A DNA stretch of 64,000 nt from Escherichia phage PECP20, in the sequence record OQ873415.1; one strand, given 5' to 3'. Below the pieces are notes generated by a model, which searched no databases, had not been told where the DNA came from, and saw nothing but the letters and a program-made list of their open reading frames with translations. Positions 5,208 to 18,376 of the stretch are shown here, in pieces (the first letter of the stretch is position 1; each line of letters starts with the position of its first letter). Made by a program: the position numbers and the translations under genes.

Positions 5208-5528
5208 ATCTTCTATGATATCAGAGTCATATCCTAATGAAATCAAGGACTTTTTAAACTCTGCAATATTCTTTTGTTTCTTATCATTTAAAAATATGAC
5301 AGGATAACGAATATTAAGTGAAGTGAATCCTGCACGTTTAGCAAGAGATACGATTAAAGGACGGTCGTATTCAATCTTACCATTATTAGTGAGGACTTTA
5401 TAAAATGTATAAGGAACATTGAGCTCCTTTAAAAGTTTTGTAACAGTATAACATCCTGGACAACGTCCAACTTCTTCAGGGATGCCATAAATTTCAATCT
5501 TGTTCTTTAAGTTCGAGTTTTGTTCCAC
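5205..5528 (-). CDS. Glutaredoxin/NrdH-like small redoxin (CPGC active site)
   Basis: Motif ...KIEIYGIPEEVGRCPGCYTVTKLL... typical of the thioredoxin-fold N-terminus; no in-frame ATG near the domain start; GTG at 5526-5528 with AAGGAA upstream proposed as start. Confidence 0.5.
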   Translation of the reverse strand: MEQNSNLKNKIEIYGIPEEVGRCPGCYTVTKLLKELNVPYTFYKVLTNNGKIEYDRPLIVSLAKRAGFTSLNIRYPVIFLNDKKQKNIAEFKKSLISLGYDSDIIED

Positions 5529-5811
5529 GAGAAATAATTCCTTGATAAGCCCAATAAGGAGGATTAACAGAATCATCACCAGAGTTTTCTTCAGGAAAAT
5601 AAACCTGGATAACAAATCCAGATGCATCAAATGTAAAATAAACTGTAGGCAGTTCACCTAACAATTCGACACGAGCATTAATTTCTTCGAGATCTCGTTC
5701 GCGTCCAGCCCAAAAACTAGGATTTAGATTACATTCGTAAAAATAATAGTCATTACCGAACATATCAAACCCATTCCAACTCTCTACCACGTACCGCTCA
5801 AAACTAATCAT
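5494..5811 (-). CDS. Hypothetical protein (105 aa)
   Basis: ORF track; 3' end overlaps the redoxin gene in another frame. Confidence 0.45.
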   Translation of the reverse strand: MISFERYVVESWNGFDMFGNDYYFYECNLNPSFWAGRERDLEEINARVELLGELPTVYFTFDASGFVIQVYFPEENSGDDSVNPPYWAYQGIISRGTKLELKEQD

Positions 5812-14973: not shown

Positions 14974-15954
14974 TTATTTCAGTAAAGTTACTTCAGAGAT
15001 TTCCTCCCAACCATCTTTATCGGTTGAAATAAAATCTGCTACATAAAGAGCCGTACGTAATGATACATTGCGAAGACGAGATACATTAGCCTTCATCCAG
15101 GACAATGCTTTATACGTTTCAGCATCAGTCAAGCCACGTTTCTGCATCATATCAGTAGATAATATTACATCTTCAACTCGAACCATAATCTCTTCATTAG
15201 AGTGTACTCCAAGGTCGAGATACACTGAACGAGATACTAAAGCTTGAAGGTGTGGAGCAAGTTTCGAACCCCGTTCTAACTCTTTATCGATATCAACGTT
15301 TGTAATGAAAACGATAGTACCTTCAAACTCAAATTCTTTATCAATACCCTTATCCTCGAGATAAGATGACGCAGTGCTCCAACAAACTTTGCGTTTATCT
15401 CCGGTATCTAATGCTGCTTTAAGAAGGTTCAGGATGTCCATATCTGAGAATACGTCAACGTCATCGATTAAGAGAACGCTGTCTTCATCACGGTTGAGCC
15501 AAAGTTGTTCGTAAAGGCCAATACCGGAGATTTTACCATTAATGCTTTTGTATTTGATGAAACCATTATCATTAGCATTATTAAGTGCTTTATCCAGAGA
15601 ATACGTCTTACCAATACCAGCTGCACCTGAAATAATGAGTGAACGAATTTTGCCATCAATAATGCCATTCGTCATCATGTTCATTACTTTAAAGCGTTTG
15701 TTGATACGAGTTTTCATATCTTCAGTGCTTTCAACAACTGCAACTGGTGACGTCTCAACTCCTTCCATTACGATGTCTGATTTGAAGACCCATACTCCAC
15801 GTTCAGAACCATCAATCATAACGAAAATTTTACCATCACCTAAGTGGGAACATTCAGGATTAAGCTTTGCCGGGAACCATGTCTTTGTGGCAACATAAGA
15901 ACCAGAGATTTCGTTATTACGATAGATACCTTTTTTGATTTGAACGTTGAACAT
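14974..15954 (-). CDS. P-loop NTPase, AAA-like (Walker A GAAGIGKT, Walker B LLIDDVD)
   Basis: Motifs read in the translation; start at internal ATG with GGAG ribosome-binding site. Confidence 0.6.
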   Translation of the reverse strand: MFNVQIKKGIYRNNEISGSYVATKTWFPAKLNPECSHLGDGKIFVMIDGSERGVWVFKSDIVMEGVETSPVAVVESTEDMKTRINKRFKVMNMMTNGIIDGKIRSLIISGAAGIGKTYSLDKALNNANDNGFIKYKSINGKISGIGLYEQLWLNRDEDSVLLIDDVDVFSDMDILNLLKAALDTGDKRKVCWSTASSYLEDKGIDKEFEFEGTIVFITNVDIDKELERGSKLAPHLQALVSRSVYLDLGVHSNEEIMVRVEDVILSTDMMQKRGLTDAETYKALSWMKANVSRLRNVSLRTALYVADFISTDKDGWEEISEVTLLK

Positions 15955-15992
15955 TTTATTCTCCAATTTACTCATTTCGTTTCGATAGGTCT

Positions 15993-16020
15993 ATAGTATC
16001 ATATCCTAAAAGCATGTACA
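15993..16020 (-). promoter_or_regulatory. T4-type early promoter candidate (TGTACA ... TACTAT); also carries a TGCTTTTA MotA-box-like sequence
   Basis: Minus-strand read. Confidence 0.4.
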
Positions 16021-16041
16021 CTACTTTTTAAAAATATTTTG

Positions 16042-16144: not shown

Positions 16145-16333
16145 CTATGCTTCAGTTGCTTGTCCGGCAGTGCTATTAATATAGCTCGATTTGATATTCT
16201 CAATACCCTGAGAATGTGATGCATTTACCGAACCGTTGGAAGGCCCAGAAGACTGGTTACCACCAGCTCCTGTGGTAGCACCAACAGAGAATGCCATCAT
16301 TACTGCGAATAAACCAATTGCTAATTTTTTCAT
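16145..16333 (-). CDS. Small secreted Ser/Gly/Asn-rich protein (62 aa) with N-terminal signal peptide
   Basis: MKKLAIGLFAVMMAFSVGA followed by a low-complexity tail. Confidence 0.45.
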   Translation of the reverse strand: MKKLAIGLFAVMMAFSVGATTGAGGNQSSGPSNGSVNASHSQGIENIKSSYINSTAGQATEA

Positions 16334-16364
16334 ATTTACCTCAAGTTAAGGGTTATTTATCTAC

Positions 16365-17354
16365 TTATTTATAGTAAGAATTATGATTTTCGAGATAGAC
16401 TTGCTCAAGGAAATCATCCCAGAAACTCATATCTACTTTTTGTTGCATACCATTCTTGGCAGCTTGTTCTGACGCATGTTCAACTTGGTCAACGATATCT
16501 TCTAGGAATTCTTGTACAGTTTTAAACGTATGTTTACCAAGCTTAACATCGAGAATAAATGGAGCATCCTGAAGTGGGTAAACCAGGTCGCCGGTTTTGT
16601 AAATTTCCAATAATTGAAGTCCACCACGACATGCATGACTCAATGCTTTCCAGTCAATACCTTCGTTAGCTTCTGCTTTACGAGCACGTTCACCATAGTT
16701 CTCTTCCAGTTTAACCAGGATAGCATTGAACTCTTTATTGGTTAACGTGTCTTGGAATTTACGGTCTAACAGACTATAGAATGTTTGCTTACCTGTTTTC
16801 TCGTTTTCGGTTTCAACCCATGAAGCAAATTCACCTACAGGTAGAACATTCTTCATATGTGATAAACGAATTACTGCACCATTATCAAAGTATTGTCCCC
16901 ATTCATTAGAACGTTTAAGGGCTTGACGAAGAACAGCCAGTCGAGAACCCTTGACACCGTATTTAGAAGCTTGCTTACGGACGTACCCTAAATAAGATTT
17001 CATGTTAGTGGTATAGAAACGAGACCTGTTATCTTGAATATACTTCCATACATCAGGCAAATCAGATTTAACTACTAGACTTGGTGGAGTATGAAGCATA
17101 TCTAATGCGACGGTTTCACCATCTGCAGCTAGTTTAAAGAAATATTTGAGACTATATAACTCATGGTCTACGTCGTCTTTTGTGTTCTTAGAAGATGTGT
17201 TATTCGTGTTCTTGCTCATATGTTCTTTAACGTTACCGGTCAAAATATCACGAGCATGAGGGACATAAATTTCTTTAAAATCGACGTCAGATTCAGGAGT
17301 AGACGTTCCATAAAGGTGGCTACCAAAGTAGCTTTTCATAATTGTTTTCATCAT
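16365..17354 (-). CDS. Predicted nucleotidyltransferase-fold protein (Pol-beta-like GS...DVD motif), 329 aa
   Basis: N-terminal YFGSHLYGTSTPESDVDF matches the hG[GS]x(9-13)DhD signature of the minimal nucleotidyltransferase fold; rest helical. Confidence 0.55.
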   Translation of the reverse strand: MMKTIMKSYFGSHLYGTSTPESDVDFKEIYVPHARDILTGNVKEHMSKNTNNTSSKNTKDDVDHELYSLKYFFKLAADGETVALDMLHTPPSLVVKSDLPDVWKYIQDNRSRFYTTNMKSYLGYVRKQASKYGVKGSRLAVLRQALKRSNEWGQYFDNGAVIRLSHMKNVLPVGEFASWVETENEKTGKQTFYSLLDRKFQDTLTNKEFNAILVKLEENYGERARKAEANEGIDWKALSHACRGGLQLLEIYKTGDLVYPLQDAPFILDVKLGKHTFKTVQEFLEDIVDQVEHASEQAAKNGMQQKVDMSFWDDFLEQVYLENHNSYYK

Positions 17355-17824
17355 TTAGCCTTATATTCAAGAGTAGGACAGACTTTTTCTTTACGAGCTT
17401 TAAGGTATTCACCTATTAATGATTTCTTACGTTCAATAGGCTCAAGTCCATTTTTAATTCGTTCTTGGTTTTGCGCAATGAGCTCAATTTCTTTATAATA
17501 TTTTCTGTCGTTATATTTGTCTAACAACCAAGACGGACCAATTACCAACCCGGTAGCAATAAAAGCCATGACTGCTACAATTAAAATGCCTACACCAATT
17601 GAGGCTGGAACTAATGTCCATAGACTGCTAAAAACAAAGAATTTAGTTAAAATTTCCTGGCCAATGATTGTGACTGCTGCTAAAATCGCAAATCCAATAA
17701 TTGAAACAGCCAATACCGGGATTAACGTTTTCCAAAAATAAGCACACAACGTTTTCGGACGATTCCATGTACTATTGAACGCGGCATAAATTTTAAAGTG
17801 CCAAGAGTTTTCATTGATAATCAT
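17351..17824 (-). CDS. Hypothetical membrane protein (157 aa, 2-3 transmembrane helices); stop overlaps the nucleotidyltransferase start (ATGA)
   Basis: Hydrophobic segments LIPVLAVSIIGFAILAAVTII and GVGILIVAVMAFIATGLVIG. Confidence 0.5.
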   Translation of the reverse strand: MIINENSWHFKIYAAFNSTWNRPKTLCAYFWKTLIPVLAVSIIGFAILAAVTIIGQEILTKFFVFSSLWTLVPASIGVGILIVAVMAFIATGLVIGPSWLLDKYNDRKYYKEIELIAQNQERIKNGLEPIERKKSLIGEYLKARKEKVCPTLEYKAK

Positions 17825-17833
17825 AATAATTCC

Positions 17834-18364
17834 TTATTTCAAAGTTGGGATAATAGAATCGAGATAAGCTTTAAGAGCAACTGCTTCATCTTTGTCTAAT
17901 GTAACGATATGTTGACGAAGGTCATCAATTTGACGAATAACTACAACATCGCCATCTTCATAAGAAGGATTAACGCCTAGGACCGTTGTATAGTCAGGGC
18001 GGTCCTGATTTGTAATAAAAGCATTACGGCATTTAGCCCATTGAAGTTTGGCCTTTTTGGCTATTTCAGATTCCATTAATTCTTTCACCTTAGTGACGAA
18101 TGTTTTCCAATTATTGATAGAAAGGCATTCATCTTCTGTTTCGATATTAACCCCACTATAAAGACCGTGATAAAAACGAACTTGAAGGTCTTCATCGATG
18201 TTAATTACAGATGCATGGCCCGGCGGATTGAGTTTCAAAATCTTGTCCAGTTCCATAGGAAGAATAGTAACAGAATCATCTTCTTGTGTCAGAACGTAAG
18301 CATAACCACGTTTTTCGATACATAAATCACCAAACAACTCGGTTGTTTCAATTACAATTTTCAT
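17834..18364 (-). CDS. Hypothetical protein (~176 aa)
   Basis: ORF track, start at internal ATG. Confidence 0.45.
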   Translation of the reverse strand: MKIVIETTELFGDLCIEKRGYAYVLTQEDDSVTILPMELDKILKLNPPGHASVINIDEDLQVRFYHGLYSGVNIETEDECLSINNWKTFVTKVKELMESEIAKKAKLQWAKCRNAFITNQDRPDYTTVLGVNPSYEDGDVVVIRQIDDLRQHIVTLDKDEAVALKAYLDSIIPTLK

Positions 18365-18376
18365 ATTATTCACCAA

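Follow-up and report, generated by a model that had tools for sequence, protein, structure and literature searches.

In a 64,000-nucleotide (nt) stretch of Escherichia phage PECP20 (sequence record OQ873415.1; hereafter the window), a minus-strand gene encoding a 329-amino-acid (aa) nucleotidyltransferase (NTase) was identified, from its identity and map position, as the ortholog of phage T4 nrdC.11, and its product as a member of the RlaP family. Both assignments are secure, and the protein is one that is already known rather than undescribed. It is encoded between the genes of a 157-aa membrane protein and a 62-aa secreted peptide. A first-pass annotation, made from the letters alone, had reported the same three open reading frames (ORFs), and all of them were found on the minus strand where it had placed them. 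It had also seen in them a candidate for an undescribed system coupling an NTase to membrane and secreted partners. This proposal was not supported by our analysis, which points to the known NrdC.11 with independent neighbors. We consider it likely that, overall, the locus consists of an RlaP-family protein and unrelated genes beside it, and that the enzyme most likely adds nucleotides to RNA ends.

Identity, motifs, and fold of the nucleotidyltransferase

The 329-aa protein shared 79% identity with T2 NrdC.11 in a tblastn search and 80-81% with the T4 and T2 proteins when aligned. Its gene lies between the orthologs of nrdC.10 and mobD.1, i.e. at the map position that it has in T4 and T2, and this combination of identity and synteny identifies the protein as NrdC.11. 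The remark in the first-pass annotation that none of the proteins could be placed among those of T4 was mistaken: besides NrdC.11, the ATPase encoded downstream corresponds to NrdC.10 and the 180-aa protein encoded upstream to MobD.1. In all, 1,535 phage records contained the NTase gene. In many relatives, the annotated start is the second ATG; the protein then has 328 aa, and its gene still abuts the stop codon of the membrane-protein gene. In GenBank, NrdC.11 orthologs are often mis-annotated as 'thioredoxin', apparently via the gene name nrdC, and one record carries the label 'putative HNH homing endonuclease'. In RefSeq, a nearby 59-aa ORF is labeled 'helicase loader'.

Family membership was assessed by profile searches. 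The protein matched the Pfam model RlaP (PF10127) with 49.6 bits (E = 5.7e-13), the cut-off (gathering threshold) being 23 bits, and it matched PHROG 388 at 2e-126. A first search for homologs returned near-identical copies only, and the search was repeated with a profile of divergent orthologs; all 240 homologs listed carried PF10127. When compared by hhalign with chromosomal proteins of Bacillales, positions 3-319 of the query were aligned with positions 17-246 of the template (99.4% probability, E = 3e-21), and these template proteins are themselves full-length PF10127 members (positions 25-248 of 249). The alignment indicates that the 329-aa protein is homologous to cellular RlaP across its full length. 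Full-length NrdC.11 homologs with 36-52% identity were also seen on contigs in metagenome-assembled genomes of Bacilli, Nitrospiraceae, Desulfobacterales, and others. By appearance, the contigs are mis-binned T4-like phage DNA and the genes are not cellular.

That the protein is a Pol-beta-type NTase, as the first-pass annotation had called it, was borne out by the Pfam score and by the invariant GS and DxD residues. The GS...DxD signature is indeed present in the N-terminus (YFGSHLYGTSTPESDVDF, residues 9-26). Its residues G11, S12, D23, and D25 were invariant both among 11 orthologs (27-100% identity) and among 75 diverse homologs, so that the catalytic D23/D25 pair is conserved down to 27% identity. 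In the 75-sequence set, D61 and D85 were invariant as well and D63 was conserved in at least 90%; one of these three is the candidate third metal ligand. Further downstream, a block comprising D234, K236, S239, H240, and R243 was conserved, all except D234 being invariant in both alignments. It contains the motif D234-x-K236-x3-H240-x2-R243, which is common to NrdC.11 and cellular RlaP.

The protein is laid out as an N-terminal NTase core (approximately residues 1-115), followed by a C-terminal helical domain with the D-x-K-x3-H-x2-R motif. An AlphaFold model derived from the 75-sequence alignment (predicted local distance difference test, pLDDT, 86; predicted template modeling score, pTM, 0.70) displayed an alpha/beta NTase core and then helices at residues 206-328. 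Compared with the 253-aa cellular RlaP, the T4-like NrdC.11 clade has about 95 additional residues inserted (roughly at 135-232), modeled as a helix plus a three-stranded sheet. The ortholog of Krischvirus TB34 (232 aa; L009:2504-3202) is without this segment. In a Foldseek search with the NrdC.11 model, all significant matches were Pol-beta NTases (3c18, kanamycin NTase, LinB, HalB, Tam41, and MNT), so the protein falls within the NTase fold; neither cGAS nor DncV was among these matches.

The two clades suggested by the first-pass annotation, cGAS/DncV-like and MNT/AbiEii-like, were both rejected in favor of RlaP. For the cGAS/DncV-like nucleotidyltransferases (CD-NTases) of cyclic-oligonucleotide-based antiphage signaling systems (CBASS), there was no match by profile or fold. 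For MNT/AbiEii, the NCBIfam model MntA reached 13.1 bits (cut-off 60) and PADLOC gave no match, and among the Pfam and PHROG matches of the neighboring genes no HEPN or AbiEi partner was found beside the NTase. Together, NCBIfam and PADLOC (2023 release, which may predate Hailong) returned no defense-system, CD-NTase, AbiEii, or MntA assignment.

A proposed role in RNA repair

The RlaP family was reportedly defined by Burroughs and Aravind in 2016. NrdC.11 orthologs had been matched to an NTase cluster of orthologous groups (COG) in 2006 (PMC1524935), and a preprint of December 2025 lists T4 NrdC.11 as RlaP, in cluster 5 of a sequence similarity network (SSN) (Carruthers, Fatma and Huang, PMC12776372). 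According to this preprint, the Pseudomonas proteins PfRlaP and PaRlaP add one or two nucleoside monophosphates to the 3'-OH of RNA before ligation. Damaged-tRNA mimics and Mn2+ are preferred, and neither DNA nor proteins serve as substrates; the enzymes show little specificity for the nucleoside triphosphate (NTP), label many cellular RNAs, and partly rescue the aminoacylation of a tRNA lacking one anticodon-loop nucleotide (PMC12776372). In the authors' proposal, RlaP counteracts 'smart' ribotoxins, RloC among them (PMC12776372). The same role was predicted for phage RlaPs by Iyer et al. 2021 (PMC7824862), and the distribution of RlaP in jumbo phages was described as mirroring that of RNA ligases (PMC7824862).

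By homology to the Pseudomonas RlaPs, NrdC.11 would bind an NTP with two divalent metal ions, preferably Mn2+, which D23, D25, and a downstream conserved aspartate would hold. It would add one or two nucleotides, template-free, to the 3'-OH of a broken RNA. In this way, the nucleotide trimmed from the cleaved anticodon loop of a tRNA by an RloC-type ('smart') anticodon nuclease could be restored, and phage Pnkp (PseT) and RNA ligase 1 (Rnl1), encoded elsewhere in the genome, would then reseal a functional tRNA. We regard this mechanism, transferred from homologs, as somewhat favored; the RNA substrate, the addition of 1-2 nt, and the role against RloC are what we infer for NrdC.11 from homology. 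Such a nucleotide-restoring step would extend the classic T4 Pnkp/Rnl1 pathway of tRNA repair against RloC-type nucleases, an extension that has already been proposed in the literature. Mosigvirus genomes encode homologs of T4 PseT (~74% identity) and Rnl1 (~67%). When records were counted by host of the T4-like phages, the numbers with NTase, PseT, and Rnl1 were near-identical (Klebsiella, 286/286/287; Shigella, 83/83/83; Enterobacter, 56/56/56), i.e. the three genes co-occur at the level of the genome.

Several observations weigh against a function in RNA repair. The RNA-ligase neighborhood, the association after which RlaP is named, was not encountered here, although it is not required for membership in the Pfam family: the NTase gene in the window has mobD.1, the membrane-protein gene, the peptide gene, and nrdC.10 as neighbors, and no RNA ligase gene adjoins it. 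The best solved structural neighbor was Hailong HalB, which is a DNA-synthesizing NTase and not an RNA repair enzyme. Searches of the PDB with the protein, two NrdC.11 alignments, and an alignment of cellular RlaP gave no significant sequence or profile match; the structure of PfRlaP is thus undetectable by sequence in the PDB copy searched, and HalB is a neighbor at the level of the fold only. The ~95-aa insertion with its predicted beta-sheet element could alter the substrate. T4 tolerates the loss of the segment nrdC.11 to mobD.3 on laboratory hosts (PMC9825161), and this dispensability fits a conditional anti-defense role but supports no specific one. In the literature, we found no experimental study of the phage NrdC.11 protein itself. 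Finally, the overlap of the membrane gene with the NTase start in 17 of the 92 loci compared below leaves some room for a lineage-specific functional link.

The T4 record OL964745.1 (159,752 bp) keeps only the last 39 codons of nrdC.11, i.e. the gene is deleted in it, in line with the published finding that nrdC.11-mobD.3 is dispensable.

Among the alternatives, the one that survives best is that NrdC.11 has the RlaP fold but serves another purpose by means of its insertion, such as tailing RNAs of host or phage, CCA-type maintenance of tRNA 3' ends, or the nucleotidylation of small molecules or proteins. Neither cellular RlaP nor the short version in Krischvirus has the insertion, but the catalytic and C-terminal motifs are conserved with cellular RlaP. 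Aminoglycoside and lincosamide NTases as well as MNT appear among the structural neighbors, whereas the characterized RlaPs left proteins and DNA unmodified. The low NTP specificity of the Pseudomonas enzymes and the many cellular RNAs labeled by them would be compatible with a different RNA substrate. The absence of an adjoining RNA ligase gene also speaks for such a role, and the co-distribution of the NTase gene with PseT and Rnl1 in T4-like phages speaks against it. The homolog in Vibrio phage RYC also has an RNA-end context: three genes upstream of it lies the gene of a CCA-adding-type tRNA nucleotidyltransferase with a PolyA_pol head and an RNA-binding domain (L011:20-1354). On balance, we consider a different role of this kind unlikely, and repair of RNA ends remains our preferred reading of NrdC.11.

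Neighboring genes and transcription signals

The window here derives from a Mosigvirus (RB69-like T-even phage), with 99.6% identity to Mosigvirus ATK47 in this region, and 557 phage records were matched by the region. In our judgment, the three-gene segment is probably a part of the mosaic nrdC-tk early region of Mosigvirus, in which one enzyme, already known, stands beside two accessory genes unrelated to it. The features are listed in Table 1.

Table 1. Features of the nrdC.11 region in the window
Feature	Position	Strand	Basis
MobD.1 ortholog (y05I-like), 180 aa, upstream syntenic anchor	17834..18376	-	Pfam T4_y05I_N/C
Two-transmembrane-helix phage membrane protein, 157 aa	17351..17824	-	PHROG 944 family, no Pfam model
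NrdC.11 ortholog, RlaP-family (PF10127) Pol-beta nucleotidyltransferase, 329 aa	16365..17354	-	Pfam, PHROG 388, orthology
Small secreted protein, 62 aa	16145..16333	-	PHROG 2243 and signal-peptide heuristics
Terminator-type hairpin, 7-bp stem, UUCG loop	16051..16068	-	Fold, terminator scan, and conserved position
T4-early-type promoter of nrdC.10 (putative function)	15993..16021	-	Comparative alignment
NrdC.10 ortholog, P-loop/AAA-like ATPase	14974..15954	-	PHROG 1250, weak AAA Pfam, conserved start

To determine how the three genes are distributed, 92 NTase loci were compared, consisting of the window, 11 annotated phages, and 80 IMG/VR contigs (28-100% identity), and partners were detected by iterative profiles, one set for each partner. 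The membrane family abutted the NTase in 17 loci. In 29, it was located 0.3-1.8 kb away, almost always upstream and with one to three unrelated genes in between, and in 46 it was not found within 4 kb. The peptide was present in four. Conservation of the three genes together, on which the idea of a coupled system depends, thus fails, and from the independent distributions of the membrane family and the peptide we conclude that the neighbors are not parts of one system. In T4, the junction between mobD.1 and nrdC.11 is occupied by the homing endonuclease gene mobD (PMC2988022) and contains no membrane gene. Other lineages have ORFs of unrelated, often soluble families overlapping the start of the NTase. 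Hydrophobic ORFs at this position in Aeh1-like phages and in phage RYC were tried as remote homologs of the 157-aa protein and rejected (hhalign probability 0.1%).

In the window, the genes of the membrane protein and the NTase do share the ATGA stop/start overlap that had been noted before, within the sequence ...AAATGATGAAA.... By simple hydropathy, the 157-aa protein has a hydrophobic part of about 70 residues and, after it, a basic tail. Its structural model (pLDDT 85) predicts a hairpin of two transmembrane (TM) helices (residues 26-61 and 68-124). The earlier description as a polytopic membrane protein therefore stands as far as the membrane is concerned, but not as regards many passes. 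Only two residues are invariant in the family, the cysteines C27 and C149. They lie within an N-terminal motif, SWH...LC.YFW, and a C-terminal motif, KA.K.K.CP, and in the model the termini carrying both motifs would pair on one side of the TM hairpin, the cytoplasmic one.

The membrane family is large, with 489 clusters (50% identity) and 1,210 phage records; it corresponds to PHROG 944 and has no Pfam model. Among its members are ICP1 gp169, phiR1-37 g265, and a protein of a Pseudomonas phage. A scan of the whole ICP1 genome recovered gp169 (E = 5e-15; L093:19923-20345) and no NTase at E <= 1. The T2 membrane gene (L002:3545-4004) appears frameshifted, with the N-terminal 61 residues in another frame than residues 28-157; the product annotated as T2_099 has 135 aa and is without the N-terminus of the membrane protein. 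Some contigs of Acinetobacter-type and other T4-like phages contain two paralogs of the family, either in tandem (L060:2712-3592) or flanking the NTase (L071:2934-3416 and 5315-5737). The 157-aa protein is a syntenic neighbor of nrdC.11 and not an obligate partner; in some T-even lineages, its gene stands at the mobD.1/nrdC.11 junction.

A second alternative reading takes the NTase and the overlapping membrane protein as a Hailong-like two-component module, in which an oligonucleotide made by the NTase would gate the membrane protein or be sensed by it, in exclusion, signaling, or counter-defense. The overlap and the structural match to HalB invite this comparison, but the match is at fold level only, with 15% identity and no sequence-level match from three profiles, and the protein both passed the Pfam RlaP threshold and aligned over its full length with cellular RlaP. 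In the membrane-protein model, no HalA-like fold was recognized, HalA being a tetrameric channel with a cytoplasmic crown. Nor is the pairing obligate, given the loci without a membrane gene nearby or with a separated one, mobD at the junction in T4, and the membrane protein of ICP1 without an NTase; elsewhere, what overlaps the NTase start is unrelated and often soluble. PADLOC had no match, within the limit set by its release as given above. We consider such a module very improbable. There is a similarly slim chance that, where the membrane protein is translationally coupled (T-even lineages), the pair cooperates, either with the membrane protein as a sensor or anchor or through a HalB-like oligonucleotide product, and by way of the ~95-aa insertion. 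If this were true, the coupled pair would be a phage-encoded NTase-membrane module instead of a plain RNA repair enzyme.

The 62-aa ORF has the features of a signal peptide (MKK, a hydrophobic core, and a V-G-A cleavage-type site, as judged by heuristics), and the mature peptide is rich in serine (9), glycine (6), and asparagine (5), in agreement with its initial description as a Ser/Gly-rich peptide with a signal sequence. The layout comprises a Sec-type signal peptide, a variable Gly/Ser linker, and a conserved C-terminus of about 25 aa. It matched PHROG 2243 at 1e-20 and was found in 102 phage records, almost all of them Mosigvirus. Variants differ by in-frame indels in the linker and conserve the signal peptide and the C-terminus, from which the ORF looks like a real gene. 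T4-type genomes have nothing in the slot that separates nrdC.11 from the terminator, and other genera carry other cargo there; in a Mosigvirus with a 98%-identical NTase, the slot holds an unrelated 72-aa ORF. The peptide is, on its predicted features, a lineage-restricted small secreted protein in a variable cargo slot. That membrane protein, NTase, and peptide make up a Mosigvirus-specific exclusion or signaling module, as their common transcription unit ending at the terminator and the intact trio in many Mosigvirus genomes might suggest, deserves next to no credence in view of the few records of the peptide compared with those of the NTase, the differing taxonomic ranges of the three families, the replaced or empty peptide slot, and the co-transcription of unrelated small genes that is common, indeed the norm, in T4 early regions.

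Downstream of the peptide gene, a hairpin and a promoter followed by the gene of an AAA-like ATPase had been described in the first pass; all of these are present, and the promoter is of the T4 early type. The hairpin (GGGGACC-UUCG-GGUCCCU) has counterparts at the same position in T4, T2, and KIT01, and the changes in their stems are compensatory. A site scan classified it as terminator-like, and the annotation of the close relative SA79RD lists it as a rho-independent terminator. It would end a transcription unit composed of mobD.1, the membrane gene, nrdC.11, and the peptide gene. Past the hairpin, the putative promoter consists of a -35 element (GTGTAC, 16016-21), a 17-nt spacer, and an extended -10 element (TGATACTAT, 15993-16001), and it is conserved as GTTTACA...TGnTAyTAT in T4, T2, KIT01, and SA79RD. 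A scan for sigma-70 promoters with the E. coli consensus gave none above threshold after the hairpin.

The ATPase ORF matched PHROG 1250 at 6e-162, gave weak AAA/P-loop matches in Pfam, and shared 78-81% identity with NrdC.10 of T4, T2, and KIT01. Although the nrdC.10 ORF (333 aa) is open from 15975, a ribosome-binding site and start (GGAGAATAAAATG) conserved with T4, T2, and KIT01 are found at 15954, and nrdC.10 probably starts there (326 aa) and not at 15975. The conserved terminator, promoter, and GGAGAATAAAATG start suggest that nrdC.10 forms a separate transcription unit. Between nrdC.11 and nrdC.10, the terminator and early promoter are kept across Tequatrovirus, Dhakavirus, and Mosigvirus, and the variable cargo genes are found on the upstream side of the hairpin.

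At the other end of the region, the MobD.1 ortholog matched Pfam T4_y05I_N (1e-40) and T4_y05I_C (1.5e-19) and shared 45% identity with T4 MobD.1. We also noted the T4 late-promoter consensus TATAAATA on the minus strand at 16366-16373, where it overlaps the end of the nrdC.11 coding sequence and precedes the peptide ORF by 33 nt. In phage SA79RD, this motif carries a late-promoter annotation. In the window, it was not enriched (11 found versus 8.7 expected). We make no claim for it as a late promoter, since the motif is not enriched and overlaps conserved terminal codons.

As a discovery, the locus carries little weight; a false lead was corrected and the annotation tidied. By-products of the analysis are a phage membrane family that has no Pfam model and an invariant cysteine pair, and the large insertion in the phage RlaP clade.

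Comparison with known systems

With the CD-NTases cGAS/DncV and with MNT/AbiEii, the protein has only the generic GS...DxD signature of Pol-beta enzymes in common. Kanamycin and lincosamide NTases and the 'nucleotidyltransferase-like protein' 3c18 from the Joint Center for Structural Genomics (JCSG) share with it a Pol-beta NTase core joined to a helical domain that is HEPN/KNTase_C-like. Hailong HalB (PDB 9dbh), which makes tyrosine-primed poly-dA (2026 review, PMC13434031), is a protein of 217 aa with an obligate partner, the tetrameric channel HalA; here, the pairing is facultative.

Closer are the RlaPs of Pseudomonas, PfRlaP and PaRlaP, which have the same NTase domain and C-terminal helical domain, the conserved aspartates, and the D-x-K-x3-H-x2-R motif. 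They differ in that the phage clade clusters apart by sequence (SSN cluster 5 versus 1a) and that NrdC.11 here lies outside any RtcB or RNA-ligase operon. The closest counterpart is T4 NrdC.11 (T4p095, NP_049709; UniProt P39242), with which the protein shares its position, the catalytic and C-terminal motifs, and the terminator and early promoter downstream. T4 differs in two respects: (i) the HNH homing endonuclease gene mobD stands in the place of the membrane-protein gene, and (ii) its nrdC.11 is followed by the terminator with no gene in between.

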